From NCBI GenBank assembly GCA_039026865.1, contig JBCCLN010000001.1:1011-65010 (forward strand): DNA of 64,000 nt. Reading direction: 5' to 3'. The position numbers were made by a program, and so were the translations under genes. Below the pieces are notes generated by a model, which had not been told where the DNA came from, made no database searches, and was given only the letters and a program-made list of their open reading frames with translations. Source of the stretch: Bacteroidota bacterium. Its GTDB lineage: Bacteria > Bacteroidota > Bacteroidia > Cytophagales > Cyclobacteriaceae. Shown here piece by piece: positions 5,048 to 46,827 of this stretch. How positions within the stretch are numbered: the stretch's first letter is position 1; each line of letters begins with the position of its first letter.

Positions 5048-6415
5048 TTACTTAATATGCCTGTAGGCTTCTCGTTTTTCAAGCATTTCAAGGCGTTTGA
5101 AATGTTCCTCCAGCACCCAGTAGATTTCACCTGTTTCATAATCAACGTATTTAACGTAACATTGACCCTGTTGAGAAAGCTTGTAAAGATATTGCTCTAT
5201 TGTTTCTTTTTTATGATATGCTGCTAGTAGCATATCTTCATCTGGAATCGCTATGGCTGTAACAGCTACCCCTGACTTCATTTGCTTCCCGAATAATTGC
5301 TGATTGTCTCGTTTTTTGATACATTGTTCTGCTTTCAATATTTCTATTTGGTCAGCCCAATAAGCCTGGAATAATGCCTTGATTAAAAACCCTGGAAAAT
5401 TTCCTATTCGCTTTCTCTTTTGAATTTCATTTTGTTCTAGCCGTTTCTTGTATTCAAGCTTTGCAATAGCAATAGTATGTAGTACATAGAAGGGGCTCCA
5501 CAGGTATTTTTTACCATCTTTCTCCAATGTTTGGTTTACGTGTATTAGCTTACGAATATGATAGATCGTATCTATATCTACCCCATTTTTAGCAAGCTCT
5601 ATTTCATATTCAAACCTAAGATTCAATCGGTTTCTTTCCCGATTCATTTTATCTGAATCAAACAGTAATTCGATTTCTTTGACCACCGCTCCTTTCTTAA
5701 TTCGTTTGTGTTTGAATTGACACCAAGTGCCTTTTAGTTCCGACTCTATTTTTCCTAATAACACGAAAAAACATTTATTCGACATAGTTACACAACCAAT
5801 GGCCATCTTCAGTGCTTTAAGTTCATATTTAATTGTTCCTCTTGCCCATTGATGCCGACGAATCACCCAATACATCATATCTGTATGGTGGACTCTAAAA
5901 TTTGTTAGAAGACGCTCATCGCCTTTTGCGAAGGAAACCATGGAAGCATATTCCTTAAGCCGAAGTATGTGAAGATATAACTTGAATGCCCGAGTAAGTC
6001 GAATTTCAAAGCAACTTGAACTATAAGAAACAGCTTCGAAGGGGCTTATCCTAGTATTACTGGCATCAATCTTCACTTTAAGAACGAAAGCTGCGAATTT
6101 TTGGCTTACTTTGAAACTTTTCTCTTGAAAGTCCATTACAAGTGTTTTTTCCAACTCCCCACCTCGTTTTTTAGCATTTTTTCTGCCTTTATAGATCTCT
6201 TCAAAGTAGACGAGGTAGGTATGTGTTTCCGTGTCTTTCAAATGATCTTTACCTAATATTTTATAAAATACTTTTCTGGCTGCGTAGCGATCAACGCGCT
6301 GTAGAATTTGGTCAATAAGTTCATAAGGACACCTAATTACATCATCTAAGACTGGATATAATCGTTTTACAGTGTTTTCAACTGAATCTTGGAGCTGAAT
6401 CGATTGGGAATTCAT
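5048..6415 (-). CDS. Plasmid replication initiator, Rep_3/RepB-like
   Basis: Winged-helix-type segments (FEIRLTRAFKLYL; HTDMMYWVIRRHQWARGTIKYELKALKMAIG; KHKRIKKGAVVKEIELLF, cf. the Rep_3 GRKV..I.F motif), adjacent to an iteron array. Confidence 0.75.
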   Translation of the reverse strand: MNSQSIQLQDSVENTVKRLYPVLDDVIRCPYELIDQILQRVDRYAARKVFYKILGKDHLKDTETHTYLVYFEEIYKGRKNAKKRGGELEKTLVMDFQEKSFKVSQKFAAFVLKVKIDASNTRISPFEAVSYSSSCFEIRLTRAFKLYLHILRLKEYASMVSFAKGDERLLTNFRVHHTDMMYWVIRRHQWARGTIKYELKALKMAIGCVTMSNKCFFVLLGKIESELKGTWCQFKHKRIKKGAVVKEIELLFDSDKMNRERNRLNLRFEYEIELAKNGVDIDTIYHIRKLIHVNQTLEKDGKKYLWSPFYVLHTIAIAKLEYKKRLEQNEIQKRKRIGNFPGFLIKALFQAYWADQIEILKAEQCIKKRDNQQLFGKQMKSGVAVTAIAIPDEDMLLAAYHKKETIEQYLYKLSQQGQCYVKYVDYETGEIYWVLEEHFKRLEMLEKREAYRHIK

Positions 6416-6833
6416 TGGCTACAATAATGAAATTAATTAATAATTTAGATTAGTCTAAAAATAGTAATAGGAGAATTTAGATTCATCTAAATTATACATA
6501 AAACATTGATAATAAGATTTATAATATGTTTTTGTTAAACAATTACTTGAAGTCAAGAAGATTTATATTTTATTTTTTCTCACCCTTTTTTCAAAACTTG
6601 TTTTGTTCTATAACTAATATTTTTAGCAAAAAATATCCTATCCAAAATAGGAAAGTAATTTACTTTAATTTTCTTAATTTTTTCTAAGAAGTAAAATTTT
6701 GATATTATTTTTAGCAAATCCTTATTTTCCAGAAGTTTTTTGGTTAGAACATATTACTTAAACACATTCATTTAATGAACATATTAATGATTCTATAATC
6801 ACCTAAAAATCAAGAATATATGGGATTAAACAG

Positions 6834-6975
6834 CACTACTTTGTGGAATAAAATGGTCTTGCATTGCACTACTTTGTGGAAATAGAAGCCTTATATTGCA
6901 CCACTTTGTGGATAAATTTATTTTTAACGTCACCACTTTGTGGATGAGTTTATCCACATGTCACCACTTTGTGGA
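6834..6975. repeat. Iteron array with DnaA boxes (putative oriV)
   Basis: Five copies of CACYACTTTGTGGA at 6834, 6867, 6899, 6931 and 6962 (spacing 33, 32, 32, 31). Perfect DnaA boxes TGTGGATAA 6907-6915 and TTATCCACA 6950-6958. Very AT-rich stretch 6420-6830. Confidence 0.85.
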
Positions 6976-7287
6976 ACTCAAAGCTTTAACCCATTTCCGC
7001 TTCTACAGCACAGGGAACTTATGCCAAATATTATTCTGAATCTAAGCAGGTGTTGAAATCGTGAAAGAACGCTTAAAACTGTGACAAGGTGACAGCCTAT
7101 GAAATGTTACACCAAATATTATTTTGTGCTTTTAGTGAGCGCCGCACAAAACACAAAGACCTTAACCCGTAAATCACCAACAAATAGCAGCTGGTTTGAT
7201 TCAAGTAATTGATTTACTGTAGTTGAATATAGTTAAATCGTGATTTGTATCAAAAAAAGGGTGTTTAGCTATTTTTAATTTTCTAAA

Positions 7288-8589
7288 TTGTATCAAAAAA
7301 AGGGTGTGATTGAGTTAGAATACGCACACAACCGAGATAAGGAGCTGATACATATTTCTGAGGTTTCGACAGGGGATCGAGGCCTGCAATGCCCCTTTTG
7401 TTTCGGTGAGATCTTAGCTAAGAAAGGCTTAGTGAAGGAGCATCATTTTGCGCATGTGAAAGACAGCTGTTTAGCCTTAGCCAAACCGTATGAACCTAAA
7501 GAGTGGCCGATTCATTTATCATTATTACAATATCATCAATGGTATTATCAGCGAATTGAAAACGATTACAACGAATTAAAAGATCAGGTCAGTAGGCTGC
7601 GGGAATGGAATAACCTAGCAAATAAGGAAATAGAACAGACCGTAGCAACTCTAAAATTGATGTCGGCTCCATTGAATGGAAAACTTCCTAAGAATAGAGA
7701 ACTGAACCGAAAGGCACTTGATGCATTACTTAACTATAAGGGGAATTTCATAGAACTTTTGGATGCCTTTTCAAGGGTGCGTTTCTCTAAAATTAAGCGT
7801 TATAGCTTGATCCAACATCCTTCATATATGCAGTATGAAAAACGAAACTCCGAAAAGATTTATCCTCGAAGCGTTTGGGAATATTATGACGTAAAGCAAA
7901 TCAATCATATTTCTGGTCCTTATATATTTCCTGAGTCTTTCGAAGAGTGCTTGTATTATCTCTATCATTACTCAAAGAATCAATTGGAGTTGAAAGAAAA
8001 AGAAAGAAGCTTGGCCACATTAAAAGATTTGCGGGATCAAAAAAGCTTACTTGATGAGTTTCACTTATACTATATAAAGATATCAAGACAAGGTGCTGCA
8101 CCTATTTATAAGATTGGGATTACGGCCAGGGATATGGGAAAACGGTTATCAGAAATCCAATCTGACCTTAAAGAAATGAGCACCCTAAATTTTGAAGTTT
8201 TGTTTGTGTTAAAAGGGCTTGGACATTTAGAGACCTTTTTTAAACACAAGTACCAGGAATGGCAATTTGATTATAAGCATTTCACTGAATATTTTGAGTT
8301 GGCTACCGCTCAACATGAGCTTGTTATTGAAGAGTTGGAGCAATTGAAGTATCATATTTCAGAGCGCCGTGAAAAAATCAAAAAAGGAATGGCACGCGCA
8401 AAGGCTAACGGTGTTCATGTCGGTAGGCCGAAAGGATCAGAAAAAATGCAACGCTTTATGGCCAAGCCAAAAAACCAGGAGATTGCTACATTATTGAAAT
8501 CGGGATTAAAGCTCAGGGAAGTAGAAAGAAAAACTGGATGTTCAATAAACACGGTGCGAAAAGTGGAGCAAGCATTATCGGTCAATTAA
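7288..8589 (+). CDS. Fusion protein: CoiA-like Zn-finger N-terminus, GIY-YIG (T5orf172-like) domain, resolvase-type C-terminal HTH
   Basis: LQCPFCFGEILAKKGLVKEHHFAH; YYIKI...IYKIGIT...KRL...LETFFKH...TEYF; EKIKKGMARAKANGVHVGRP...GCSINTVRK. TTG start. Confidence 0.7.
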   Translation: MYQKKGVIELEYAHNRDKELIHISEVSTGDRGLQCPFCFGEILAKKGLVKEHHFAHVKDSCLALAKPYEPKEWPIHLSLLQYHQWYYQRIENDYNELKDQVSRLREWNNLANKEIEQTVATLKLMSAPLNGKLPKNRELNRKALDALLNYKGNFIELLDAFSRVRFSKIKRYSLIQHPSYMQYEKRNSEKIYPRSVWEYYDVKQINHISGPYIFPESFEECLYYLYHYSKNQLELKEKERSLATLKDLRDQKSLLDEFHLYYIKISRQGAAPIYKIGITARDMGKRLSEIQSDLKEMSTLNFEVLFVLKGLGHLETFFKHKYQEWQFDYKHFTEYFELATAQHELVIEELEQLKYHISERREKIKKGMARAKANGVHVGRPKGSEKMQRFMAKPKNQEIATLLKSGLKLREVERKTGCSINTVRKVEQALSVN

Positions 8590-8680
8590 AGATTGAAGCA
8601 TTAGCGCTCAAGGGAATAGCGAGTAATTATTTCGTTTTTTAAATTTCATTTAATTTGGTTTTTAACCATTAATCGAAAAT

Positions 8681-9250
8681 ATGAAATTTGGTTTTGCGAG
8701 AATAAGTAAACGTGATCAAAACCTTGATCGGCAGATAGATTTACTGATTGCTAAAGGAGTTAAGAGAGAGAACATAATTGTTGAAAAGTTGTCTGGCAGA
8801 AAGGAACAAGTTAAGCTTGATAAACTAGTGCAGGACAAAATGCGTGAAGGTGATACCCTGGTAGTAGAAAGTGTTGGCCGTCTCGGACTGACTATCAAAG
8901 AACTAATAAATCTTCTGGACTACTTGAAAGTAAAAGATATTGCCTTTATAAGTTTGAAAGAAAGAATAGATACATCTACTGCTATGGGTCAAGCTTTAAT
9001 GCAAAATGTTGCTATCCTAAAACAGATGGAAGTTGAGATTCTTCGAGAGCGGACAATGGAAAGGCCAAAATCAGCAAGGGCCAGGGGAAGAAAGGGCGGA
9101 CGGCCAAAAGGAACTTACAATAAAATTAAAGCCAATGCAGCTGCTCGTCAATACACACAAGGTGTTCCAGTTGGTCAGATTATAAAAGACCTGGAGATAA
9201 GTACATCTACTCTATATAATTATCTGAGACGTGAAGGTGTAAAAAAATAA
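8681..9250 (+). CDS. Small serine recombinase (resolvase/invertase family)
   Basis: GFARISKRDQNLDRQ (catalytic Ser retained), GDTLVVESVGRLG, ARARGRKGGRP, C-terminal HTH (ISTSTLYNYL). Confidence 0.92.
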   Translation: MKFGFARISKRDQNLDRQIDLLIAKGVKRENIIVEKLSGRKEQVKLDKLVQDKMREGDTLVVESVGRLGLTIKELINLLDYLKVKDIAFISLKERIDTSTAMGQALMQNVAILKQMEVEILRERTMERPKSARARGRKGGRPKGTYNKIKANAAARQYTQGVPVGQIIKDLEISTSTLYNYLRREGVKK

Positions 9251-9293
9251 TTTCGATAAATGGGTTTTGATTAATCGAAATTTTGTATATTTG
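9251..9293 (+). promoter_or_regulatory. Imperfect palindrome overlapping a Bacteroidota-type -33/-7 promoter candidate
   Basis: TTTCGATAA...TTAATCGAAA at 9251-9280; TTTG at 9266-9269 and TATATTTG (TAnnTTTG) at 9286-9293. TTAATCGAAA also occurs at 8669-8678, just before the recombinase start. Confidence 0.45.
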
Positions 9294-9417
9294 AATATGA
9301 TAGGGAAGTAGTTAATGGTTTCCGACCTAGTATTGCTAGTCATTATCGAGCGGTAAAAATTACACCGGTTAACGAAATATTACCACTGCACAACGTATAA
9401 ACAGACGAAGAATAGAA

Positions 9418-9723
9418 ATGGAATATACACCAGAAGAAATATTGCATTATTCACTTAGATGGATCTACAATTTCCACAAAGATGATCTTCAATCTGCACA
9501 TGCAAAATACCATTGTGGTCCTGATTATCATTGGGATAAGTATTTGGGAAAGCTTAAAGAAGGAGTAAATGCCACACAAGCAATGACCGGAGTAGTACTG
9601 AACATGGATGATGAAGGGAAAAAACTATTAATTGATTGGGTTTTAGAAAATTCAAAAGGGCAGATAGAGGATAATAGATGGCTGAAAGAAGCCCAAAGGA
9701 AACACCTAGAGAAGTATAAATAA
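9418..9723 (+). CDS. Hypothetical protein
   Basis: Clean 101 aa ORF, no recognised motif. Confidence 0.6.
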   Translation: MEYTPEEILHYSLRWIYNFHKDDLQSAHAKYHCGPDYHWDKYLGKLKEGVNATQAMTGVVLNMDDEGKKLLIDWVLENSKGQIEDNRWLKEAQRKHLEKYK

Positions 9724-9728
9724 GGAGT

Positions 9729-10087
9729 ATGGAGTTAACCCCATTTTATAGAGGCAAGTTGAAATATAAGTACATCGGAAAAAGAATTGATTATACCTCA
9801 GTTCGTAACTTCATATTAGATTCTGATTTAACTGATGGTTGTGGATCTTTGATGAAGAATTGTTTCCTTTTCAAAGTCAGGAATTCCGCAACCATTCTCC
9901 TGATGGATTCTCCTGGGGATACGGCGGATCTGGACCGGCACAACTAGCACTGGCTATCTGCGTGGAATTGTTTGGCGAAGACCTAGCTTTAAACGTTTAT
10001 CAGTCTTTTAAATCTAAGTATATTGCTATTTTACCTAAGACCGATTTTGAATGTGATTTGGTTGTTAATTTGAATGAATTGAAATAA
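9729..10087 (+). pseudogene. DUF6166-like protein split by a one-base frameshift near 9838 (or a sequencing error)
   Basis: The second frame has RNHSPDGFSWGYGGSGPAQLALAI. The first frame starts at 9729 after AAGGAG. Adding one base at ggttgtgg joins them. Confidence 0.6.
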
Positions 10088-10114
10088 AAAAGTGTAAACT
10101 AAGCGAGGATAATG

Positions 10115-10220
10115 GATATCGTATCAAACTTAGTTGGAATTTAAAAGGATTCCACTAGGTTTACTAAAACCAAAAAAGTAAAACCAACAAGAAGTAGAAG
10201 CCCTGATCAAAAGTAGTGAA
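10115..10220 (+). repeat. Repeat B
   Basis: GATATCGTATCAAACTTAGTTGGAATTTAA (10115-10144) plus two further blocks shared with repeat A; the core CTTAGTTGGAATTTA is shared with repeat C. Confidence 0.95.
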
Positions 10221-10373
10221 TCACAGCTATTTCATTTATTAGTTTACGAACAGAAAAGGTTAAGATATCTAGGCCGTGAGATCGGTCAATTGTTCCGTCG
10301 CAACTCGCTATCCAGGCAAGAAACTCTTCTTCTGTATTATAAGGCCTTTTGTTTCTGTAATATCCACCGCTCA

Positions 10374-11780
10374 TCAGTAATCCCAGGCTCCTGCTCCAGT
10401 ATCAGCCACCACCCAATCAGACCGTAGCTTACCATTGCTGGCAAGCTTTCGTGAGATAGAAGGGTCTTTGGTCAATTTAGAATAACATTTCAATGTGTGC
10501 ATAGTGTCGTCATAGTTCTTTATCCTGAAAGCTGGTACATGGTCTGGTGCAATACGTTGATGAATACAATAAAGAGCAATATGAACCATGCACCTTATCA
10601 AGTTCTTGTTCCTGGGGTCTGTTGTTTCCTTGAATTCAATCTTATTGTTCTCGAAAGTTGCAGCGTTTACATACATGACAGTTTCCCCCGGCAATTGATA
10701 ATTAACGCCTTCATATGCTACATACGCGCCGGCAGCATATGAAACTGTTTCATCATACGCTTCAACGGTTACCGCTTTCCAATTCGCTGATGCCTCGTCA
10801 GGCGCAATACCTGCTTGGATATTCAATAACCCAAAAAGCTCATAGAATGCATCATTATAGCTAACAATCAATCCAACATTAGATGCGGAATAATCAAAAC
10901 CTGGGTCAAACGTATTAAAAGCCACTTGATTCCAAAACTGCGTCAAGCCTGGAAAGAAATGCAACCTACCCTTTGGGTTTATCTCCATTTTAGATAGATA
11001 GAATTCATTGTTGAATCTCACATAGTCGGTAGGCTTAAAAAAGGCGCCCACAGCAAATTCGAAGAATTGCTTAGGCTGCCATGCACCAGACACATATTCA
11101 ACCAGTGTAAAGTCATTGGTATCGACACCTAGATCACCACTCACAGGAGCAACTATTGTTGTGAAGTCTACCAGGTTTTGATTTATCCAAGGATTAAAGA
11201 AAGGTTGAACCACCTCATTAATGAGGTCACCATTCTCCTTAGCGCATTCGTACCACCCCCCTTTATATTTTACGATATCCGTTGGCTCATAATTACCGTC
11301 CTGGCTGTAGACCTTAGTAGACACTAAGATCCAAAACATATCATTCGGAACAGACTGACCCGAGCTGGCCACGTAGCCCTCATAGCGGAGCTGATAGAGC
11401 GCGTTATCGTATTCCACGTAATCACCAACAGAATAAGATGTTTTCAGCGGATCAAAGACTTCATCTGCAAGCTCATTCCAGTAAGTTTCATATCCGGGTT
11501 TTCTGGCCGGATTCAAATAACCTTGTACCTGATAGAGCTTATCGTTTACCCAAACATTGTCACCCTTTAGAGTTTCTTTTTGCACGCTAAAGTCCCTGGT
11601 ATCCAGACCAATCTGGAAAGCGGCTTCTACCTCATACTCATTTGTCAGATATGAGATGATTTCTTCCTTGGCGTCTTCCTCAGAATCAATAATAATTTGG
11701 TTATTGCCTGCGATTAATTGATCAAAATGTTTTTGCTGTATGAAACGGTAATAGTCTGAGTTTCTTAAAAATCGTACCAT
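10374..11780 (-). CDS. Head-tail connector (Mu gp36/DUF1320-like) with a large inserted array of CBM5/12-like repeats
   Basis: The N-terminus (SEEDAKEEIISYLTNEYEVEAAF) and C-terminus (DPRNKNLIRCMVHIALYCIHQRIAPDHVPAFRIKNYDD) resemble gp36-like adaptors; about six aromatic repeats lie between them. It follows terL. Confidence 0.65.
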   Translation of the reverse strand: MVRFLRNSDYYRFIQQKHFDQLIAGNNQIIIDSEEDAKEEIISYLTNEYEVEAAFQIGLDTRDFSVQKETLKGDNVWVNDKLYQVQGYLNPARKPGYETYWNELADEVFDPLKTSYSVGDYVEYDNALYQLRYEGYVASSGQSVPNDMFWILVSTKVYSQDGNYEPTDIVKYKGGWYECAKENGDLINEVVQPFFNPWINQNLVDFTTIVAPVSGDLGVDTNDFTLVEYVSGAWQPKQFFEFAVGAFFKPTDYVRFNNEFYLSKMEINPKGRLHFFPGLTQFWNQVAFNTFDPGFDYSASNVGLIVSYNDAFYELFGLLNIQAGIAPDEASANWKAVTVEAYDETVSYAAGAYVAYEGVNYQLPGETVMYVNAATFENNKIEFKETTDPRNKNLIRCMVHIALYCIHQRIAPDHVPAFRIKNYDDTMHTLKCYSKLTKDPSISRKLASNGKLRSDWVVADTGAGAWDY

Positions 11781-13219: not shown

Positions 13220-13808
13220 AGTTGGTCTTCACCCTATTACATACCAAAACTCCTCTTTTTACCGCTTCAATTACTTGATTAAACGGAAACCCTCCCCCCG
13301 GATCTTTCTTACCCTTATTTTTCCCTCTTACATCATCCCCTGACACGTCGGAATGACGTACGATATTTTCAACAGGTATATTAAATCTTCTGCGCCAATC
13401 AACACATTTTTGAATACAAGTCTGAATAACTGCTTTAGAATAGGAAGCAGGATCTTTCATTTTCTGTAAAAAAGTACCATAATCATTGCATCCGGCTATT
13501 AATATCTCTATCCCTAAATAATGATTATTTAAATTCTTCAAATCGTCATGTATACTCTCTCCGGCATGCAGAGCTTTTTCGGTTTCATCTACATTTCCGC
13601 CTATCCAGGATGCTTCGGGGCTAATAAATCCATGAGCAGACAACCCGAGAATAGCTAACCATTCACAGGCATGAATATTCTCAGGATATTTATTAATTTC
13701 TTGCTCTTTTTTGCCATACCATTTCAACGCACCCCGATGGATATATTCGCTCATCGCATGCAGTACAATACCTTTTGGCTGTATCAACTCCCTCATTTCT
13801 TGATACAT
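13206..13808 (-). CDS. N-acetylmuramoyl-L-alanine amidase (Amidase_2-type endolysin)
   Basis: IVLHAM, SAHGFI, ALHAGES, LGIEI, RHSDVS...KDPG. Confidence 0.88.
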   Translation of the reverse strand: MYQEMRELIQPKGIVLHAMSEYIHRGALKWYGKKEQEINKYPENIHACEWLAILGLSAHGFISPEASWIGGNVDETEKALHAGESIHDDLKNLNNHYLGIEILIAGCNDYGTFLQKMKDPASYSKAVIQTCIQKCVDWRRRFNIPVENIVRHSDVSGDDVRGKNKGKKDPGGGFPFNQVIEAVKRGVLVCNRVKTNCEAD

Positions 13809-32636: not shown

Positions 32637-32697
32637 ATCAGTTTTTTATAAGCCAGAATCTTATCCGTAGTGGGAATAGTACAAACTGAATAACCAT

Positions 32698-38514: not shown

Positions 38515-38596
38515 CCTCTATAGGCTTTTCCTTTTTCAAGTCAATAGCTTTTCTAATATTAAAAGTCTTGCCTTTCAATATGCTCGCTTTTTTCAT

Positions 38597-40882
38597 TTAT
38601 TGAGATTTTAATTTTTTCTTCAGTTCGGATAATTCACTGGACAATTCTTGAATCGCTTTGATCATAGGACAAATAAATTCAGTATATCTTAGTCCGTAAC
38701 TGTCCACATCTTCACCCTTAACTGTTCCTATTTGCCTTATAAAACCTGCAAAATCCTTTACCCCTTCCTCAGTTTTTAAGGTCTCTTCCACTTCCTGTGC
38801 AATCAATCCATAATGAGTTCTTTCACCCGTAATCCATTTGTACTTCACCGGGTTTAAGGAATTAATAAATTCCAGGCCAAGGTCCGATCTTTCTATCTCT
38901 TTCTTTTCTCTTCTATCGGACGTAGATATCATTCCATTTAAGGCATATATAGTATCAAATATATTATAAAGTCTTCCAAGATTTATAATTCCAGGGTATC
39001 CCGGCACTACCGCACCATTCTCCCCATCAGCTCCATTACCATTTCCTTTGCTTCTAATACCTGGAGTTAAAATAACGTCTCCTCCATCAGCTCCTTTTAT
39101 ATTCGTTCCTGTCGGAAAGGCAGCATGCCCTGCCTCTAATTTAAGGGAGCCCCCAGGTATGGCAGCATCATTAAAATTTGTGATCGTTCCTCCATCCCCT
39201 GCCTTTAGTGTTAAGATCCTTGCTTTAGTCCCAGCGGGAGTATTTAGCGATATAGATAAAGACTTATCAGAAACTATAGTTGATGTAGTGTCATCAGAAC
39301 TGCCACCATTCAAAATGATATCTCCGCCTTCAATTTCCCCGTACCCTACATGTACGCCTGTGCCTACAAATTTACCGGTACTATTAATAACAACATCATT
39401 ATCAAGACGATAATTATTCTGAGTATTAATCACACCATAAGTATTAACTCCTCCCCCACCTACAAACTGTCTAGAAGTATTGATCACATCAATATCATCT
39501 ATGCGATACTCATTCGAAGTATTAATTACACCTATAGTATCAACACCCCCCGAACCAACAAACTGCCTAGAGGTATTGATCACATCAGTATTATCTATTC
39601 GGTAACTAGTCCAAGTATTAATCACCCCATTTGTATTAACGCCTCCCGGGCCTACAAATTGACTGGCAGTGTTAATCACATCTACATTATCAAGACGATA
39701 TTCATTTGATGTATTAATCAAGCCTGAAGTATTTACACCCCCTGATCCTACAAAAGTATTAGAAGTGATAATATCTGTAGAAATAGAAATTGTACGGTTA
39801 GTGCTTAAATCTCCACCTCCGGACAAACCATTACTGGTAAATACGGAAACCTGATTTTTTAGTCTCGCCCATGCTATACTTCCATTGGAGTCAACAACTT
39901 CAAGGCTATTCACGTCTAGCCTCCCGGTGGCATAAATTCTTAAGGTTCCATTCCAATTATTTTCTGCACCGTAACCAAACTCGAAAAGATCATTGGTGCT
40001 ATTATCATCACCCGCCGCAAATCTCATTGTAGCAGCATTATTACTTTCAATATGGGTGATCCTTCCAACATCATTAGTAGTAGCCGGGAAGGTAATAGTT
40101 GAAAACCCACCGGTTTTACGTACAGTCAGCGCAGCAACGCTGGTAGAATCTAGTGTCGCCTCATTTCCTATAAAAGATCCGCCTACCGATAGGTCAGAGT
40201 TAAAAGATGCATCCCCGGATACTGCAATCCCCCCTGAAGCAGATAAGCCATCCATTACATTAACACCATTATTGAAAATAGCAGCGCTACCCGAAACCTG
40301 GAACCCCCCTTTAAAACTGGAATTGCTTCCCACATCCAGATTACCACCAATCACGGCTAACCCCCCACTTACTTCAAGCGTATCGTTGGCCCTTACCTTT
40401 CCGCTAAAATTCACCTCTTGGGCGATCGTTTGGCTAAGAGCTACCGGATTTTTCAAAACAACATCAGAGCCTACCACATCCTGTACGTACCTCCGAACAG
40501 GTGTACTCGCTGATATCTTCAAAGACCTTTCCGTACTTACAAAAGTAGAGCTTAGTGCCGTCGCATAATCTTTAGATGCCTCTCTTGATATAGCATCGGT
40601 ATACAATCTGCTACTGGAATTATCCTGAGCATTAATATACTGATCGGTTGCTAGATCTACTTCATTCGCGCCTGCAAAAACACGTATCCGGTTGCCTAAC
40701 CAGACAAACCCGCTAGATATAGTGTAAACCGTACCAGAAGTATTGGTGAGATCTACACCACTGATCACGAACGGGTCTCTTCCGGCGTAAAAAGACTCAA
40801 AAGATTTACTTAAATCCTGTAGTGCCTGTAAATCTTCATTAAGTAGCCTTCTACCCCCGGTGTTTAATACAATTTCTACCAT
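38597..40882 (-). CDS. Tail fibre/spike with C-terminal intramolecular chaperone (peptidase S74-like)
   Basis: TSDRREKKEI cleavage motif, HYGLIAQEVE, LRYTEFICPMIKAIQEL coiled coil; internal beta-rich repeats. Confidence 0.88.
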   Translation of the reverse strand: MVEIVLNTGGRRLLNEDLQALQDLSKSFESFYAGRDPFVISGVDLTNTSGTVYTISSGFVWLGNRIRVFAGANEVDLATDQYINAQDNSSSRLYTDAISREASKDYATALSSTFVSTERSLKISASTPVRRYVQDVVGSDVVLKNPVALSQTIAQEVNFSGKVRANDTLEVSGGLAVIGGNLDVGSNSSFKGGFQVSGSAAIFNNGVNVMDGLSASGGIAVSGDASFNSDLSVGGSFIGNEATLDSTSVAALTVRKTGGFSTITFPATTNDVGRITHIESNNAATMRFAAGDDNSTNDLFEFGYGAENNWNGTLRIYATGRLDVNSLEVVDSNGSIAWARLKNQVSVFTSNGLSGGGDLSTNRTISISTDIITSNTFVGSGGVNTSGLINTSNEYRLDNVDVINTASQFVGPGGVNTNGVINTWTSYRIDNTDVINTSRQFVGSGGVDTIGVINTSNEYRIDDIDVINTSRQFVGGGGVNTYGVINTQNNYRLDNDVVINSTGKFVGTGVHVGYGEIEGGDIILNGGSSDDTTSTIVSDKSLSISLNTPAGTKARILTLKAGDGGTITNFNDAAIPGGSLKLEAGHAAFPTGTNIKGADGGDVILTPGIRSKGNGNGADGENGAVVPGYPGIINLGRLYNIFDTIYALNGMISTSDRREKKEIERSDLGLEFINSLNPVKYKWITGERTHYGLIAQEVEETLKTEEGVKDFAGFIRQIGTVKGEDVDSYGLRYTEFICPMIKAIQELSSELSELKKKLKSQ
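39368..39754 (-). repeat. Four tandem 96-bp (32 aa) repeats in the tail fibre
   Basis: FVG units begin at 39754, 39658, 39562, 39466 and 39370; consensus FVG.GGV.T.GVINT.N.YR.D..DVINT.RQ. Confidence 0.92.
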
Positions 40883-40885
40883 ATT

Positions 40886-41398
40886 TTATACATATACTAT
40901 ATCATAGTCAAAAGGTGAAACCCGATAGCTTTCAACCGTTCCCACAATTTGTCTTATCAATTCATCATTACCCTCGAATGTAGCGGGTAATAAAACTCTA
41001 AAACTTTTCGGAATATCACCCGCCTTTTCAGAAGAGAAATAGACGTCAGGAGCTGAGTCGCTTTCATATTCATAATAAGTAAAAACTTCTAATACCCCCG
41101 TTTCAAAAGAAAAATAGGTACTTATGGCTAAGTCCTCATCATGAACAATCTCTATCTTATCGTTAATAGAAGTAAAAAAAGCATTATATGTGGCATTTAG
41201 GTAGGCTTCAAAAAGCAATGTCTGTGAGGTCAAGGTGGCCACAATTCTGGTATCGTTTACATAGCGCAAAAACGTATCATTCAGAAATCGTAAAGGAAAA
41301 GTCAAAGCAAGCAACCACTGCGTTTGTCTGGGTTTCCTTAAAAATGGCGGGATCAGTCTTTGAACAGTCTTCTCTAAACTTAGATTGTAGTTCGCCAT
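40886..41398 (-). CDS. Baseplate wedge protein (putative)
   Basis: RLIPPFLRKPRQTQWLLAL pattern; lies between the baseplate J-like gene and the fibre. Confidence 0.65.
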   Translation of the reverse strand: MANYNLSLEKTVQRLIPPFLRKPRQTQWLLALTFPLRFLNDTFLRYVNDTRIVATLTSQTLLFEAYLNATYNAFFTSINDKIEIVHDEDLAISTYFSFETGVLEVFTYYEYESDSAPDVYFSSEKAGDIPKSFRVLLPATFEGNDELIRQIVGTVESYRVSPFDYDIVYV

Positions 41399-42238
41399 TT
41401 AAACGTCTACCTCTATCGTGATTAAATCTGCAAATGTCTCCCCTAATGTTGTGCTTGCCTTTAAATAACCGCTCTCTAGTATTACCCTTCTGTCTACGTT
41501 CGTATCCACAGGACTTAAAATATCCTTAAAGCTCCTTATCGTTATATTGTTAACATCTACATCTACTACATTGGCCACGCTAAGCACCGCTTCTTCAAAT
41601 TTCTGTTTATAAAATATAGCATCGAAAGGTAAGCTGACCATGAAATTATTTATTGCCGTCTCTACCTTGGTAAAAATCGTTTCATTGCTAAAAACACCAT
41701 CGTGATAAACCGTCATCTTGGGCAACAGCAGATCTGGATCCAGACTACTAATAAATATCTGTGTACCTGCAAATTTAATTTGTTCAAAATACTTATTAAG
41801 GCGTACCACTTCTATACCATCAAGTTTCTGAAGATTGGACACATTTCCCTTAGCCAGCTTCAAGATTAAGGCTCTGCCTTGCAGAGTATTTGATTCAGTA
41901 TAAGCCGCGCGTGTCACTAATCTTTGCGATTCAATAACCGGGTCATATCCGAGTTGAGTTCCGTTATTAATCACAACAAGCTCAGACCCATCCTGATACT
42001 CCAGAGCTTTTTGAGAATACCACATAGCAGTACCTTGTATGCGCTGATCCAGTAGGATATCAACTTCCTCTTTAAAGAAATCCCATAACACCTCATGCGT
42101 GTAGATAGCAACGGCCACGATAAATGTCCATAGCCTCCATATAGCAGTAGAAGAACGGCTATTGAGCTTGGATAACTCAGGTCTGCTATCTTTATATTTA
42201 ATGATACTCTCCTGTATGGTTTGTATGGATCTGGCCAT
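41399..42238 (-). CDS. Baseplate J-like protein
   Basis: MARSIQTIQ...SSTAIWRLWTFIVA, GTAMWY...ALEYQ, LSVANVVDV. Confidence 0.72.
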   Translation of the reverse strand: MARSIQTIQESIIKYKDSRPELSKLNSRSSTAIWRLWTFIVAVAIYTHEVLWDFFKEEVDILLDQRIQGTAMWYSQKALEYQDGSELVVINNGTQLGYDPVIESQRLVTRAAYTESNTLQGRALILKLAKGNVSNLQKLDGIEVVRLNKYFEQIKFAGTQIFISSLDPDLLLPKMTVYHDGVFSNETIFTKVETAINNFMVSLPFDAIFYKQKFEEAVLSVANVVDVDVNNITIRSFKDILSPVDTNVDRRVILESGYLKASTTLGETFADLITIEVDV

Positions 42239-42475
42239 TTTTACCCCTTTGAAGTATAGGTAAAAATTTAGTGAAATGTTAAAATAGGTGATGATTGAAA
42301 ACCTTCATTAATACCTTAGCAGTTGTTAATTACTTTTGTGCGGTGTTTATCTATAGACCATTACTTTGCAATGGTTCTTTCCTGAATATAGTTATCATTG
42401 TATAACTTTTATTGAAAATATCTGCTATGCATTTTGAAAACTTTGCCCTTTCCTTTGGTGTACTAGATACGAATA

Positions 42476-44032
42476 CTAATCATCATAGGTTAGTACTACC
42501 CAAGAGGGGCTAATCGAAGAGTTTGCCATATATAAATTATATTCCTGCGTCCAGTTTACGGCTAATTCCCTACTCGAAACAGACACCTTTATTGGGGCAG
42601 CAAATAAACTTCCCTCGCCACCTATTAATCCTGTCTCATTTTCATCATAATAATTTTTCCATTTAGTGAAGGTTGGGTAATAACTAGGTATTGCAAACCA
42701 TGGAAAACCATCATAATAGAATTCTCTATCTATAGAATTTGACACTTCTGCAACCATTTTAGCGCCTTTATATACATCGACGTTTCCGATCACACCATCA
42801 GGACTTACCCCAAAAAACCAAGGATATACACCAAGATATTCGACATTATTACCAGAAACCAACGTTCCTCCAGGTATCTGTCCTAAAGGATGTGGATTCC
42901 CAAAGTTGTCAGTTTTAATTGGTCCTTCAGCGTGATCGATTTCACAATGGTATGTAATAATGCCATCAATAAAAATCAGCGTGTCGGTGAATTCCGAATC
43001 AGGTATAGCATCTTTGGATGTTAAAACAACATCATCTTTATAAAGACGAAATTCAGAGGCTGCCCCAGCATCACGCTGATAATAGTAAACGTATAATTTT
43101 GATAGATGTTGAGCACCTATCTCTCCAACTTTTTGATCTACTGAATTAATGTATAAATCAGGCGCTCTATAGAAAGGCTGTACTACCCTTACTAATAAAG
43201 CTTCCGCTAACTGCTGAAAAGTCGTCCCTGCCGGAAAGGTTTGCCCGTGTTGAGCCCCCCCTACATTATCACCCCCAATATTTACCGTGATAGCAGAGGT
43301 GAGCGCAGCATTGACATCAAGGCTTTCCTGTTCAGCAATTTTAATAAAGTTAGTGTCTGAGGCCAGGTATTTATAAATGGCCCACCCGGAACTGACACTT
43401 GCATCGGCACTCGCATCTGCCACATAAATATTTTGTTGATCATTCAGGAAACCTGCCTGGGCGTCCCTGTCGGCAATATCTGTAGCTGTGGCATCTACGC
43501 TAACCACGCCCTGTATGAGATTATAAAGTTTATTCAGGGTATCACCTTCTGAAGGTACCCCATCTTTTAAAGCCATAATTGCTGAAGATAGAGCAGGGTC
43601 GGCAAAGGCGATAGCCAATGTCTTACTTACAGCAATGACCGCAATGGTTAAAGAGCTAGAAGTGATTACCGGTGGAATGCTAAAATTCGCGGGGTCAAAG
43701 GATATAGTCACCTCCTGAGAAGGGACGATCTTTATGTAATAAAGCTGATTGTCTTCAAAAAAATCACCCTCAGTATCAATGGCGGATAGCTGCGTACTCG
43801 CATGGACGTTTAATTCAAAAATTCGGGTAGTAGTAAAATTCAGAGAAGTAGATTCATTAGAAATAGTCAAGTCCTGAGATGGTAGACTCAAGTCCCCGAT
43901 CCCAAGAGAAGTTTTAAATTCACCAAAAGATATTTTTGAAGTAACACCCGTTAAGGTCCTCCAAAACGGAAACTCATCATCATCTAAAAGAACATCCTGG
44001 TTTTGTAATTCTATAATTGTTCGTTGAGCCAT
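42476..44032 (-). CDS. Virion structural protein (fibre-like, mosaic)
   Basis: DTLNKL motif, FPAGTT and Ig-like beta-rich C-terminal half; located in the tail module. Confidence 0.55.
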   Translation of the reverse strand: MAQRTIIELQNQDVLLDDDEFPFWRTLTGVTSKISFGEFKTSLGIGDLSLPSQDLTISNESTSLNFTTTRIFELNVHASTQLSAIDTEGDFFEDNQLYYIKIVPSQEVTISFDPANFSIPPVITSSSLTIAVIAVSKTLAIAFADPALSSAIMALKDGVPSEGDTLNKLYNLIQGVVSVDATATDIADRDAQAGFLNDQQNIYVADASADASVSSGWAIYKYLASDTNFIKIAEQESLDVNAALTSAITVNIGGDNVGGAQHGQTFPAGTTFQQLAEALLVRVVQPFYRAPDLYINSVDQKVGEIGAQHLSKLYVYYYQRDAGAASEFRLYKDDVVLTSKDAIPDSEFTDTLIFIDGIITYHCEIDHAEGPIKTDNFGNPHPLGQIPGGTLVSGNNVEYLGVYPWFFGVSPDGVIGNVDVYKGAKMVAEVSNSIDREFYYDGFPWFAIPSYYPTFTKWKNYYDENETGLIGGEGSLFAAPIKVSVSSRELAVNWTQEYNLYMANSSISPSWVVLTYDD

Positions 44033-44038
44033 ATTTCT

Positions 44039-44368
44039 TTATACATTTAGTACTATTTCATCCCCCAATTCCGTGACTATAAAGTCCCCGGATTCCGTAC
44101 CCAAAAATTCATGTTGAAGTGAAGGGTCGGTAAACTCACCCTCCCCATCAAAATTTGTAACTATATGATTATTTACCGTTAAAAAACGCACCACCTCATT
44201 GTCGCGAATATTTGCTTCATCAGTGACAAGGACAGTGCCGTTCACTAGCACAGTTTCCAGGCCTAAATCTGGATTATCTCGCATCAATTGCTCCACCCCC
44301 AACAGGCTTCCGTATACCTGGATGGACACATCGTAAATACTTTGCCCATATTGCACTGTATATGCCAT
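44039..44368 (-). CDS. LysM-like/tail X baseplate protein
   Basis: YTVQYGQSIYDVSIQVYGS...NPDL...L..GTVL. Confidence 0.75.
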   Translation of the reverse strand: MAYTVQYGQSIYDVSIQVYGSLLGVEQLMRDNPDLGLETVLVNGTVLVTDEANIRDNEVVRFLTVNNHIVTNFDGEGEFTDPSLQHEFLGTESGDFIVTELGDEIVLNV

Positions 44369-45058
44369 CTACTTATCTTCAAATAACTCGCTGGAGTCAA
44401 CACTGATCCGGCCATCTTCCGTAATGGAAATCCTGTCTACCTTCAATTCGTCCTTCGCCCACTCTTTTCGTATCCTGTTTTCCAACTCTTGAATATTACT
44501 TACCCCGTTAATTTCTCGCAAAATTTCAACCCCTTTAGTAGGATCATTCAATAAATTTCCCTTATTGGCCAACAAAAGCATTTTTTCATTTTGTTCAATG
44601 GAATCATCAATGGAAAAATCCCCTATCTCGTAGGTTCGAAGCGTAAATCCTCCCCTATTACCCAAATAACTCTGATACACACTTCCATCAAATACAATAT
44701 TATACCCAAAATCATCTATTCCTCTCACATTAAAAGGAGTGATTAATCGCTGCTTTTCATCCACCGCAAAAAACTTCGGCGTTTCCGTACGTATACCCAA
44801 ATTATCTACATGATAAACATAGATTAAAAAAGGAGTATCAGTAATGTTCGACTCAGGTATCTGAACAAAATCATCCATGACAAGTCCTGCCTGAAAACTC
44901 AAAACATTTGATCCTGTAGAAGTTAACTCAACTCCAAGAACTGGAAACCCGTTTTCATCACCTTCATAATTGGAAGTATGGAAAAATGGATTGTTGGAAT
45001 TCACAACCGTCAGATCATCGCTTGAAGCAATAGCTATTAGAATATCGTTTCTATTCAT
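44369..45058 (-). CDS. Baseplate protein, gp25-like C-terminus (putative)
   Basis: C-terminal LLLANKGNLLNDPTKGV...RIRKEW; position in the baseplate module. Confidence 0.55.
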   Translation of the reverse strand: MNRNDILIAIASSDDLTVVNSNNPFFHTSNYEGDENGFPVLGVELTSTGSNVLSFQAGLVMDDFVQIPESNITDTPFLIYVYHVDNLGIRTETPKFFAVDEKQRLITPFNVRGIDDFGYNIVFDGSVYQSYLGNRGGFTLRTYEIGDFSIDDSIEQNEKMLLLANKGNLLNDPTKGVEILREINGVSNIQELENRIRKEWAKDELKVDRISITEDGRISVDSSELFEDK

Positions 45059-45283: not shown

Positions 45284-45420
45284 AAACTTAAAACAATTAG
45301 TTACCTCATAGTATAGGCAAAATACTTTTACTATGTTTAATAGATTGATACCATAAGGTCTATATCTTATATTTTCTTTAGATTGTATCCTGTTTACCTA
45401 AACTATATAAACAATAGAAA

Positions 45421-45579
45421 CTATAGATCCTATAGAGCCTTTCGAAACCTTTAAATATAATTGGAATCACTTTTATTTATTCGAGGTTCTTTACGCCTTT
45501 CACCAAAAAATTTGCATAAGGGAAAATATATATACTCTTTATAAAGTATATTTTGTTACTTTTCTATAGATTCTATAGA
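45421..45579. repeat. Candidate partition centromere
   Basis: CTATAGATCCTATAGA (45421-45436) and CTATAGATTCTATAGA (45564-45579) are 15/16 identical; each is two CTATAG palindromes 9 bp apart. They lie upstream of parA. Confidence 0.45.
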
Positions 45580-45693
45580 TTCTTTCTAAACTTTTTTTTA
45601 ATAATAAACTTTGTCATCTTGATTTGCTTTCTTATCATTGTCCCCGGAATATAAACCCACCTTTTCATTTAAATAATTAAAAATCATTTTTAA

Positions 45694-46467
45694 ATGAGTA
45701 AAACTATCTGTGCGATCAATGCAAAAGGAGGAGTAGCAAAGACAACCATCATTGTGAACTTAGCCGGAGCGCTGGCTAAACTTGAAAAAAAAGTATTAGT
45801 AGTAGACCTGGACCCTCAAGGAAACACTACGGAAAACCTCGGCTGCCAGGATGTAAAAGCAGACATTACCGATCTTTTACTGAAAGGTAAAAAGTTTGCT
45901 CAGGTAATGGTCGATAGGGGGGACATGCATGTTATTCCGGCTATCCATCAAAGAAGTATAAACCTGGAAACGGAACTGACCGTCACCTCACTAGGCGAAA
46001 TAAAGCTTTTAAAGGCAATTAAAGACCGGAGTGATGATTATGACTATATTCTCATAGATTGTCCTCCAGGGTTAGGGAAAATTACCAGAAACGCCGTTTA
46101 TGCCGCTAACTACTACATCATACCAATGATGGCGGAGCCTTTTTCCCTGGCCGGCCGCAATTTCATCATCAAATTCGCGAATGAAGCGCTGGAATTCAAT
46201 GACGATTTAAAAGCACTTGGGTTCGTCTTCAGTAAATACAATGAAGATCTGAGAAATAACCTTAAACACTTTGTCGTTCGCACGGTAAACAAAGATGATT
46301 TTCCCACTTTCAATACATTTATTAGAGAAGATACAAAGCTTCAATCATGCATCCCCTTTGGACAACACATTTTTGAGTTCACAGAAAATGATTCAAAATT
46401 AAAATCAACGAATGCCGTAGAAGATTACCTGGATTTAGCAAAAGAAGTCATCCAAAAAACAAAATAA
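45694..46467 (+). CDS. parA: ParA-family partition ATPase (type Ib, no N-terminal HTH)
   Basis: KGGVAKTT deviant Walker A, VDLDPQGN, YILIDCPPG, YIIPM. Confidence 0.93.
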   Translation: MSKTICAINAKGGVAKTTIIVNLAGALAKLEKKVLVVDLDPQGNTTENLGCQDVKADITDLLLKGKKFAQVMVDRGDMHVIPAIHQRSINLETELTVTSLGEIKLLKAIKDRSDDYDYILIDCPPGLGKITRNAVYAANYYIIPMMAEPFSLAGRNFIIKFANEALEFNDDLKALGFVFSKYNEDLRNNLKHFVVRTVNKDDFPTFNTFIREDTKLQSCIPFGQHIFEFTENDSKLKSTNAVEDYLDLAKEVIQKTK

Positions 46468-46470
46468 ATC

Positions 46471-46827
46471 ATGCCCACACCAGAAGAAATTGAAGCTAAA
46501 CTTAGAGCAAAAGATCAGGAAGATAAAGAAAAAAGAAGTCCCAAAACCGCAAAAAAAATCGCAGAAAGTGAAAAGAAATCTTCTGGAAAAACAGCAAAAA
46601 AAACAAGTTTAGTAAGGTACATTAATGTAGATTATAATAAAAAAAGAGGAACAGAATCCTATCATATGCACCCGGATTATGCCGAAATAATCCTTAAAAT
46701 TCAATACCTGAAACATCACAGAAATAAAGGAGGAACTCTGGAATACCTCATAGATTTTTTCCTCAATAACATATCCGAAACGCAAAGGAAAGAACTGCTC
46801 AAAATAAATATCAATGAAGACTACTGA
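46471..46827 (+). CDS. Putative ParA partner (centromere-binding, ParG/RHH-like)
   Basis: 3 nt after parA; flexible charged N-terminus and a compact strand-helix-helix-like C-terminus. Confidence 0.55.
   Translation: MPTPEEIEAKLRAKDQEDKEKRSPKTAKKIAESEKKSSGKTAKKTSLVRYINVDYNKKRGTESYHMHPDYAEIILKIQYLKHHRNKGGTLEYLIDFFLNNISETQRKELLKININEDY

Follow-up and report, generated by a model that had tools for sequence, protein, structure and literature searches.

A predicted Rep_3-type iteron replicon and partition cassette mark a probable phage-plasmid lineage of Mu-headed myoviruses in Bacteroidota

Phage-plasmids are well known from Proteobacteria, Firmicutes and Actinobacteria. P1, SSU5 and N15 are tailed temperate phages that carry a plasmid initiator with iterons, a ParA-type partition system and a site-specific recombinase, have no chromosomal integrase, and keep replication and morphogenesis genes together on one replicon (PMC7969092). 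Such elements are probably under-counted in Bacteroides and other clades, where replicases are hard to recognise (PMC7969092). Here we analyse a 64,000-nucleotide stretch, hereafter the window, of contig JBCCLN010000001.1 (GenBank assembly GCA_039026865.1, a Cyclobacteriaceae bacterium of the Bacteroidota), in which a myovirus with a Mu-like head adjoins rep, a gene for a putative plasmid-type replication initiator, and contains a ParA cassette in its tail module. The same set of properties is predicted for the element in this window. The original prediction, made from the letters of the stretch, was of a compact phage-plasmid-like myovirus with a dual replication strategy. The phage-plasmid as a kind of element is already known; what is new here is the Rep family and what appears to be a clean swap of the lysogeny module.

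The likeness to P1 includes the origin, as P1 RepA and oriR are accompanied by DnaA boxes and so is the origin predicted here. No sequence relationship to P1 was found, the closest entries of a phage collection being Bacteroidota phages, and the two differ in several other respects. The host phylum of the window is Bacteroidota, and the window encodes a full DnaE, DnaQ, DnaB and primase replisome whereas P1 has a lytic replicon of RepL type. In the window we identified no second origin, no toxin-antitoxin pair and no repressor of C1 type, and where P1 has Cre/lox the window has a small serine recombinase that lies in a non-conserved insert. Finally, no plasmid form of the present element was seen in the metagenome unitigs examined.

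Cluster A mycobacteriophages provide a precedent for a swap within one lineage between an integrase and a plasmid-maintenance module at a corresponding locus. In some of these phages a parABS cassette positionally replaces the integration cassette, and those members persist extrachromosomally. Unlike the window, to which they have no sequence relationship, they gain parABS only and rely on phage replication functions; the window has a Rep_3/iteron origin at the integrase position and its par cassette elsewhere, in the tail module. Of the cluster A phages, 20% are without an integration module (PMC7969092). Among phages of Bacteroidota, Carjivirus communis, the prototypic crAssphage, likewise has no integrase, carries plasmid-type replication genes and has been proposed to persist as a plasmid (PMC10983915; PMC7969092). 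It differs from the window in being a podovirus-like member of the Crassvirales with RepL-type proteins, an unrelated backbone and no such Rep_3/iteron origin.

The replication module of the window lies at the left end of the phage and comprises the following features, with protein lengths in amino acids (aa) and DNA lengths in nucleotides (nt).

5048-6415, minus strand: rep, a divergent Rep_3-superfamily initiator of 455 aa (predicted WH1-WH2), assigned by profile homology
6416-6833, minus strand: AT-rich stretch (~80% AT, ~400 nt) from the iterons to the rep start, from composition
6433-6502, immediately ahead of rep: palindrome TTTAGA-N-TCTAAA in two copies, kept in relatives
6834-6975, minus strand: five iterons TCCACAAAGT(G/A)GTG with a period of 32-33 nt, from a repeat scan
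6907-6915 (minus strand) and 6950-6958 (plus strand): perfect DnaA boxes inside the iteron array, from a motif scan
6976-7287, minus strand: origin-flanking region with two CCAAATATTATT motifs at 7019-7038 and 7107-7126

The Rep protein has no direct match in Pfam (E<=0.01), PHROG, NCBIfam or PDB sequences, and its profile also fails to match PDB sequences. Its close homologues number only three among 5.8e9 proteins. A profile of Rep and these three homologues gathered 53 relatives from 1.84e9 representative proteins, and in the 47 that were aligned Pfam Rep3_C was recognised in 37 and Rep3_N in 25. When the AlphaFold2 (AF2) model of Rep (pLDDT 63) was compared with PDB structures, the top 46 matches were, without exception (46/46), Pi, RepE and related Rep proteins; the best E was 2.5e-4 and the probability reached 1.0, with TM-scores of only 0.3-0.37. 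Compared with BFVD, the same model matches a protein of COG5527, 'initiation of plasmid replication'. In a tblastn search of a plasmid collection the nearest homologues were annotated replication initiation proteins of circular plasmids of 93-98 kb from marine Cytophagales (Pontibacter sp. G13 CP134698, Tunicatimonas pelagia CP120684 and Chondrinema litorale CP111064), at 23-26% identity over ~70% of the protein and E values of 2e-18 to 2e-6. The Pontibacter plasmid also has a ParA family gene near its Rep; unlike the window, these plasmids have no portal match. Rep had no match among phage records, and neither the protein nor its alignments matched IMG/VR or GTDB genomes, a first JGI scan being empty as well; blastn of positions 4500-10400 against the plasmid collection gave no DNA match. 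We assign Rep to the Rep_3 superfamily through transitive homology and not through a direct Pfam match.

The iteron motif occurs five times in the window, all copies lying in the array, against 0.19 expected, and two of the window's three perfect DnaA boxes fall within the same array. The predicted origin has the direct repeats, the DnaA boxes and the AT-rich putative unwinding stretch beside rep that are expected of an iteron initiator. The CCAAATATTATT motifs next to it are conserved in relatives. A palindrome of the form TTTAGAC-N3-GTCTAAA before the rep start is common to three of three phages, the window copies being slightly variant; it is unlike the iteron sequence and is a candidate operator for Rep or another regulator. 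The iteron replicon of Rep_3 type that had been proposed from the letters is confirmed by profile family, iterons, DnaA boxes and AT-rich DNA, and the fold matches of the model, at low TM-scores, would agree with it.

The second plasmid-type module is a cassette on the opposite strand to the surrounding tail genes.

45400-45583, plus strand: clustered copies of CTATAG, a short palindrome, preceding parA, from a repeat scan
45694-46467, plus strand, opposite strand inside the tail module: parA, 257 aa, without an N-terminal helix-turn-helix (HTH) domain (AAA_31 4e-43, phrog_164 1e-49)
46471-46827, plus strand: partner of ParA, 118 aa, assigned by position

Against NCBIfam ParA_partition the ParA protein scores 9e-30, which is under the family cut-off, and the 118-aa partner has no family match in Pfam, PHROG or NCBIfam. 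The sizes and order of the cassette (257 aa, 118 aa, repeats upstream) would fit partition of type Ib, in which a small ParA of ~200-260 aa is paired with a small partner other than ParB. The CTATAG clusters are a candidate centromere or operator. Both close relatives described below have ParA and its partner at the same tail-module position on the opposite strand, and they have palindromes of their own, CTTAAG and GTTAAC, at the same place upstream of parA. These ParA genes were found by gene context; a word-indexed ParA search did not list them. By homology, ParA, partner and repeats would together form a partition system. The ParA and partner named in the original prediction are both upheld, by the family matches given above and by the 118-aa open reading frame (ORF) behind parA.

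Two long metagenome contigs with close Rep homologues were found, one in ENA (ERZ26052130 ctg16244c, 102,360 bp, 59% Rep identity) and one in Logan (SRR33155360_3101, 104,363 bp, 52%), and these, the close Rep homologues found on long contigs, both lie in this phage context. In both relatives the order runs from the DnaQ-like gene through TerS to amidase, TerL and a 470-aa protein, and rep follows ~650 bp downstream on the same strand. TerL and sheath are 66-77% identical in amino acids between the window and the two relatives. By blastn, window positions 19996 to 10406 are collinear with positions 728 to 9146 of the relative locus L006, and window positions 6425 to 5342 with positions 9991 to 11077 of the same locus. 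The spacer before rep in the relatives contains 3-4 iterons (TCCCCAAAGTGAGG, against TCCACAAAGTGGTG in the window) at the same period of 32-33 nt, together with DnaA boxes, CCAAATATTATT motifs, AT-rich DNA and the palindrome before the rep start (L006, L007). Further afield, a TerL alignment had no match in GTDB and found only relatives at 36-48% identity in IMG/VR.

Because they occupy the same positions in two relatives, the Rep/iteron and ParA/partner modules are best read as part of the phage lineage and not as an unrelated plasmid remnant. Two findings had been named beforehand as contrary to a phage-plasmid, namely close relatives with an integrase in place of Rep, and a Rep cassette that is an independent plasmid remnant; the close relatives keep Rep, and rep is syntenic with the phage in them. 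Homology of the phage backbone to the relatives ends at ~62173 on one side and at the 3' end of rep on the other. Between rep and portal the relatives carry an arm of ~42 kb with ligases, KilA-N/ANT, Dam, DUF932 and many small genes, and the window unit at 4663-62252 (57.6 kb) is the phage backbone without this arm. The description of the element as a compact example of ~58 kb does not extend to the lineage, as the stretch from rep to portal is longer by ~42 kb in the relatives.

In the phage collection the nearest entries are Bacteroides phage BS-TP1 (PQ571274, 111.7 kb) and the uncultured MT835494, at ~22-39% aa identity to window proteins (about 31-39% for BS-TP1). BS-TP1 is temperate and was obtained by induction, and its authors report no homologous sequence in bacterial chromosomes (PMC12694917). 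This closest cultured relative has portal-MuF, protease, capsid, sheath, tape measure, fibres, SbcCD and sigma factor in the same order as the window, and the shared order continues through DnaB, primase, DnaE, DnaQ-like protein, TerS and TerL to a homologue of the protein at 10374-11780; a long arm of small genes lies on the other strand. Unlike the window, BS-TP1 has a tyrosine integrase (gp119) two genes after the homologue of 10374-11780, at the locus that iterons and rep take in the window, and it also has a diversity-generating retroelement (DGR) and a ribonucleotide reductase. MT835494 has a tyrosine integrase as well. A broad hidden Markov model (HMM) of the Rep family matched nothing in BS-TP1 or MT835494, and the tail-module ParA of the window is missing from both, as is its partner from BS-TP1.

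As BS-TP1 and MT835494 have the replisome and no match to the Rep profile, the homologous replisome evidently works without a Rep of the window type. The strongest argument for the reading of Rep and Par as maintenance functions is comparative and follows from this: Rep sits at the integrase locus of BS-TP1, and the replisome needs no Rep. By gene order the Rep module occupies the lysogeny-module slot, and the comparison indicates that the lineage swapped an integrative lysogeny module for a plasmid-type maintenance set. We consider it probable, with good confidence, that the lineage is a Bacteroidota phage-plasmid in the form of a Mu-headed myovirus.

The remainder of the window was laid out from the ORF list and family scans.

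1-4500: orphan Rhs-type C-terminal tips, small downstream ORFs and an rve fragment
4663-10114: rep, iterons and a few accessory genes
10115-62252, nearly all minus strand: complete myovirus
From 62405, outside the phage block: split HTH/ImmA (Peptidase_M78) gene

Within the myovirus, family scans identified the following blocks and genes.

10374-15807, minus strand: packaging and lysis block
10374-11780, minus strand: CBM_5_12 protein, 468 aa
11780-13219, minus strand: TerL (Terminase_3)
13206-13808, minus strand: Amidase_2 lysin
14024-14953, plus strand: Dam-type methyltransferase
15151-15807, minus strand: TerS
16647-37530, minus strand: replication, recombination and regulation block, including a PAS protein, a sigma factor and NinB
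17738-18463, minus strand: DnaQ-like exonuclease
20852-22417, minus strand: phrog_1745 phosphoesterase, 521 aa (9e-140)
22520-26032, minus strand: DnaE
26246-27262, minus strand: Toprim primase
27393-28757, minus strand: DnaB-like helicase
30738-33774, minus strand: SbcC/SbcD-like proteins
35995-37530, minus strand: UvrD
38597-45058, minus strand: tail fibre (Peptidase_S74 C-terminus) and distal tail/baseplate genes
46821-61894, minus strand: tail and head block with baseplate/hub genes, DUF6046, tube and orf122
49735-52287, minus strand: tape measure
53732-55021, minus strand: DUF2586 sheath
55434-56444, minus strand: major capsid
56480-57781, minus strand: Clp/Mu-like protease
59233-61440, minus strand: Portal_Mu fused to Mu_F

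The virion, packaging and lysis set (TerS, TerL, portal-MuF, protease, capsid, sheath, tube, tape measure, baseplate, fibre and amidase) is intact and collinear with the relatives. Its likeness to Mu is confined to the head module (Portal_Mu, Phage_Mu_F, Mu-like_Pro_N). Among the scanned ORFs of 4663-62252 there are no MuA/MuB transposition genes, no tyrosine or large serine integrase and no XRE/S24 repressor, and phmmer with the BS-TP1 integrase found zero matches in the window. The gene content read from the letters agrees with these scans for the Mu-like head and myovirus tail, for DnaE, the DnaQ-like exonuclease, primase, helicase and the gp46/47-like genes (SbcCD-like here), and for the absence of integrase, MuA/MuB and XRE/S24 repressor from the phage block. 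The single-stranded DNA-binding protein (SSB) that had also been listed could not be confirmed, its likely candidate at 33855-34904 having no family or PDB match and an unusable AF2 model (pLDDT 39).

Taken together, the element combines a tailed-phage gene set, a plasmid-type initiator and origin, a partition cassette and no integrase in 4663-62252, and the lineage very probably persists as a plasmid. After infection the phage genome would circularise. As in the Rep_3/iteron family, Rep monomers would attach to the iterons and, helped by host DnaA, melt the AT-rich stretch so that theta replication starts at low copy number, and the palindrome before rep may act as an autoregulatory operator. 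ParA and its partner would act on the CTATAG repeats to segregate the copies, as known from the ParA family. On induction the DnaB-like helicase, primase, DnaE, DnaQ-like exonuclease, SbcCD, UvrD and NinB would amplify the genome for headful/pac packaging, and late transcription would be driven by the phage sigma factor. The copy in the window has gained a 2.8-kb insert and lacks the ~42-kb arm, and it would have been fused to its surroundings through copies of a mobile element.

Several observations weigh against this picture. No repressor or lysogeny switch was identified in the block. ParA homologues of some virulent phages have uncertain roles (PMC7969092). The relatives showed no integrase in the ~42 kb inspected of each ~103-kb contig, and their arm could hold one. 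The Rep family may also serve as a plain phage initiator, given the phage-like genes on the contigs of its distant relatives. There is also no sign of a free form in a public marine metagenome run (SRR22824308), which holds 93% of the sampled words of window positions 58000-64000 and was read through its k=31 unitigs only, which cannot show rare forms or resolve repeat junctions: the phage is not deeper than its flanks, and a unitig linking 62252 to 4663 is missing. The phage unitigs have a depth of 18.6 and those of the rep segment 15-16.3, compared with 16.3-18 in the left flank and 18.4 in the right. Two low depths (6.4 and 10.8) belong to the shortest and most AT-rich unitigs, the lows tracking low G+C content (GC).

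The chief alternative for the lineage is that it is no phage-plasmid, and that Rep and its iterons are an ordinary lytic origin recognition system that loads the phage DnaB-like helicase in a virulent or pseudolysogenic phage. ParA would then position replication or assembly, or interfere with the host, and the presence of the phage in this contig would be a recombination accident. The replication block has no other recognisable initiator, no repressor was found, and the sigma factor, DnaE replisome, SbcCD and phrog_1745 resemble the gene set of a virulent phage. Distant relatives of Rep (31-35% identity) also lie on two phage-like contigs of 56-63 kb (L105, Ga0316204_10001471, 62,954 bp; L106, Ga0306906_1000081, 56,065 bp) that encode a helicase of SNF2 type, a DNA ligase dependent on ATP, a homing endonuclease (NUMOD4/HNH) and two large proteins (1517 and 1761 aa). 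These contigs have no gene besides Rep in common with the window, structural genes included, and the Rep family may be spread over several phage-like lineages. Against a lytic origin, the homologous replisomes of BS-TP1 and MT835494 come with no match to the Rep profile, Rep sits at the integrase position of BS-TP1, and in bona fide Cytophagales plasmids the replication proteins are homologous to it. The DnaA boxes point to dependence on host initiation, the cassette of ParA, partner and repeats is kept in three genomes with repeats specific to each lineage, and the depth ratio of phage to flanks is 1:1. We consider a purely lytic role for this origin unlikely.

Of the phage-plasmid originally predicted, the reading of the lineage stands, on the conserved rep and par modules and the integrase swap. 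For this particular copy no plasmid state is visible: the coverage check that was proposed for it gave, in the k=31 unitigs, a phage depth equal to the flanks with no excess. The dual replication strategy drew no support, as no second origin was identified and a single Rep could drive both kinds of replication.

How this copy is joined to its surroundings is a separate question, and it turns on three truncated ends of a mobile element.

4503-4662, minus strand: end A, left inverted repeat (IRL) type, 160 nt, tip at 4662 and interior leftward, 96% identical to the canonical end and then diverging
10115-10234, plus strand: end B, IRL-like, tip at 10115 and interior rightward, first 30 nt identical to A and the rest degenerate
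62253-62305, plus strand: end C, right inverted repeat (IRR) type, 53 nt, tip at 62253 and interior rightward, ~92% identical to the canonical end and then diverging

A 15-mer, CTTAGTTGGAATTTA, occurs at 4634-4648 (minus strand), 10129-10143 (plus strand) and 62267-62281 (plus strand). A scan of GTDB genomes placed it ~15-30 nt inward from the ends of a multicopy element, as the core of its terminal inverted repeats; many contigs of the Bacteroidota metagenome-assembled genome (MAG) JBCDKO01 end at this element (loci L008-L029). The element has two end types, IRL beginning with GATATCGTATCAAACTTAGTTGGAATTTAAGAGGG and IRR beginning with GA(T/C)AATGTTTCATTCTTAGTTGGAATTTAGAGGG, which form imperfect terminal inverted repeats of ~35 nt. 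A decayed copy in the MAG (L023) contains two tandem tyrosine recombinase ORFs (Phage_integrase 2e-24, SAM-like N-terminal domain 1.6e-10), and a DDE insertion sequence as the source of the repeat was rejected once this copy had been translated. Neither an intact element copy nor a third recombinase gene was recovered. Like the boundary element, the recombinase in trio (RIT) and Tn554-like transposons are multicopy and have tandem tyrosine recombinase genes in the same orientation and imperfect terminal inverted repeats; RIT elements have three adjacent recombinase genes, and two ORFs were seen in the one decayed copy here (RIT family described in PMC3414803). The element may be RIT- or Tn554-like. 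The window itself holds only truncated ends and no recombinase gene of the element.

In the metagenome the element-end stretches reach depths of 500-2500x (500-2000x for end A) against ~18x around them, and the element is present at roughly 30 genome equivalents. Every unitig break at the ends is due to these repeat k-mers of 500-2500x; one unitig of 52,168 bp corresponds exactly to window positions 10115-62282. This led us to reject the reading of the 15-nt repeats as attL and attR of an excisable 52-kb prophage that leaves Rep outside, as did their identity as terminal repeats of a multicopy element and the synteny of Rep with the phage in the relatives. Direct repeats of the att type that a phage integrase would leave were not found at the ends of the unit: the third copy of CTTAGTTGGAATTTA is inverted, and there is no phage integrase.

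Ends A and C have the same orientation in the window, and the unit between them adjoins orphan Rhs cassettes; such an orientation is what one would see if a replicon had been fused in between two element copies in direct repeat. It is most likely that the copy was fused into a larger replicon, probably a chromosome, through element copies and not by a phage integrase. Embedding in a larger replicon without the arm of the relatives has, in our judgement, an even chance of being correct, and our preference for a real embedding is weak. Embedding is favoured because the first letters of the window fall in a high-depth Rhs repeat, which is what a break in a linear contig would give, because the gene in the right flank has homologues in Bacteroidota chromosomes, and because orphan Rhs arrays are typically chromosomal. 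What speaks against it is that fusion through two element copies requires the later truncation of both, with 160 nt and 53 nt left, and that no target duplication was seen at the unit ends. This copy may be a reduced derivative.

Some of the same observations would suit a circular episome, in which the whole 78,751-bp contig is closed and nothing is integrated; the ~21 kb from C round to A would then be a transposon-like cargo unit, with the ImmA-type gene, the Rhs-type toxin tips and small ORFs carried between IRR and IRL ends. Ends A and C would be properly inverted on such a circle, and one insertion would explain both. The unit would sit exactly where the relatives have their variable arm of ~42 kb, flanks and phage would automatically be of equal depth, and the MAG in which this mobile element occurs lacks the right-flank gene. 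The window nevertheless starts inside the Rhs core repeat, as if a linear contig had broken there, orphan Rhs tip arrays are typical of chromosomes, no target duplication is seen, and the visible 6.4 kb of the ~21-kb unit (14.7 kb lying outside the window) contains no recombinase genes of the element. We regard the episome as doubtful.

An assembly artefact is less plausible still. It would require a free circle of 57.6 kb with an intact element copy of a few kb between rep and orf122, which would give the observed tips and orientations at 4662 and 62253, and a mis-join through the element, whose ~30 genome equivalents break all k=31 unitigs, including the one of 52,168 bp. End C is only 53 nt long and has private variants (GAGGGG, CTATCC), such that a k of >~60 or ordinary reads would span only the real junction; the depth of unique k-mers is 18.6 on the phage side of C and 18.4 on the flank side, and end A has private variants too. 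The private variants of C, its short length and the matching depths make a mis-join through the repeat less likely, and we rate it as improbable.

Least credible of all is that the phage-plasmid borrows the tyrosine recombinases of the host transposon in trans and uses the transposon ends (4634-4662, 10115-10143 and 62253-62281) as surrogate att sites to shuttle between plasmid and integrated states, which would allow reversible fusion with any of ~30 element copies and the inversion or excision of sub-segments.

Returning to the phage-plasmid lineage, its host order is probably Cytophagales. Cyclobacterium and Cyclobacteriaceae MAGs have genes with 74-76% identity to the one in the right flank, plasmids with Rep homologues come from Cytophagales, and GC is 0.39 in the phage and 0.38 in the MAG loci. 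Marine Bacteroidota MAGs found in the same sample share the mobile element and also a short repeat at 7160-7230. The Bacteroidota host that had been suggested from the letters is borne out.

If the phage-plasmid reading is correct, a previously unannotated Rep family with its iterons would link marine Bacteroidota myoviruses (~52-104 kb) to Cytophagales plasmids, and the swap of integrase for rep and iterons at one locus of one backbone would provide a handle on how temperate phages change their lysogeny mode. Metagenomes could be searched with the Rep profile for further elements of this kind, and for marine Bacteroidota, which are poorly tractable, the rep-ori-par fragment is a candidate backbone for vectors. 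Embedding between transposon ends would mean that 'integrase-less prophages' in contigs can be cointegrates or cargo junctions and not att-mediated insertions.

Between the origin and end B lies an insert that interrupts collinearity with the relatives.

7288-10114, plus strand: insert absent from relatives
7288-8589, plus strand: CoiA_N/endonuclease-like gene with a recombinase HTH tail, 433 aa, from family scans
8681-9250, plus strand: small serine recombinase of resolvase/invertase type (Pfam Resolvase 2e-26, phrog_125 DNA invertase 4e-43)
9418-9723, plus strand: 101-aa ORF, from the ORF list
9839-10087, plus strand: DUF6166, from family scans

The genes of the insert have zero homologues in the two relatives. 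The resolvase that the original prediction counted among the plasmid-type genes is real as a gene; its place in the conserved backbone is not, as it lies within this insert. In a metagenome variant position 8589 is joined to 9398, which skips the recombinase gene. The ORF at 7288-8589 has a CoiA_N-like N-terminus, a middle part like the phrog_681 endonuclease and, at residues 360-426, the HTH of a phrog_125 serine recombinase; a second haplotype of it is present in the same metagenome, with variants at 7395-8506. An invertible segment, with the invertase-like gene between the inverted ends A and B, was considered and found unsupported, as these ends come from an element with tyrosine recombinases and the insert that holds the invertase-like gene is not conserved. 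One unitig (depth 14.5) joins 4666 to 10185 on opposite strands, a result that was not reproduced on short references; the joint could be an inverted arrangement of 4663-10114 or a second related locus. Near the left edge of the insert, at 7160-7230, a hairpin precedes TTGATTCAAGTAATTGATTTACTGTAGTTGAATAT; this repeat reaches a metagenome depth of ~1500x, and copies of it occur in loci L010 and L013 of MAG JBCDKO01.

The 521-aa protein at 20852-22417 has an N-terminal HTH_23 and a metallophosphoesterase body, and phrog_1745 is annotated as 'DNA transfer protein'. The protein has no homologue in BS-TP1, MT835494 or the fetched parts of the close relatives. No tRNA genes were found in the window, nor any Rfam family at the gathering threshold.

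At the other end of the phage, comparison with a relative (L030) picked out conserved DNA ahead of the head genes.

61932-62173, no strand assigned: conserved non-coding blocks upstream of orf122 and portal

The blocks lie at 61932-62029 and 62130-62173. One of them contains three GGGGGT(A/C) motifs and is 89% identical over 104 nt to L030 (positions 2243-2346), compared with only ~65-72% for coding DNA of the two phages. Positions 61932-62029 gave no RNA-structure signal and no Rfam match, and the blocks are a candidate pac site or late-promoter DNA site.

Directly outside end C, a gene for an HTH/ImmA-IrrE (Peptidase_M78) regulator is present in two ORFs, 62405-62911 and 63010-63531. The phrog_2439 profile has 367 positions, so intact ImmA-type genes probably encode ~370 aa, and the split at 62405-63531 is either a frameshift or a sign of a pseudogene. 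At the left end of the window there are two orphan Rhs-type toxin tips, each with small ORFs behind that are probably immunity genes (features at 68-1036, 2523-3029 and 2375-2734). A fragment of an rve_3 integrase core lies near the tips on the opposite strand, and the part of the Rhs core at 1-400 is at ~146x depth and is thus repeated in the community.

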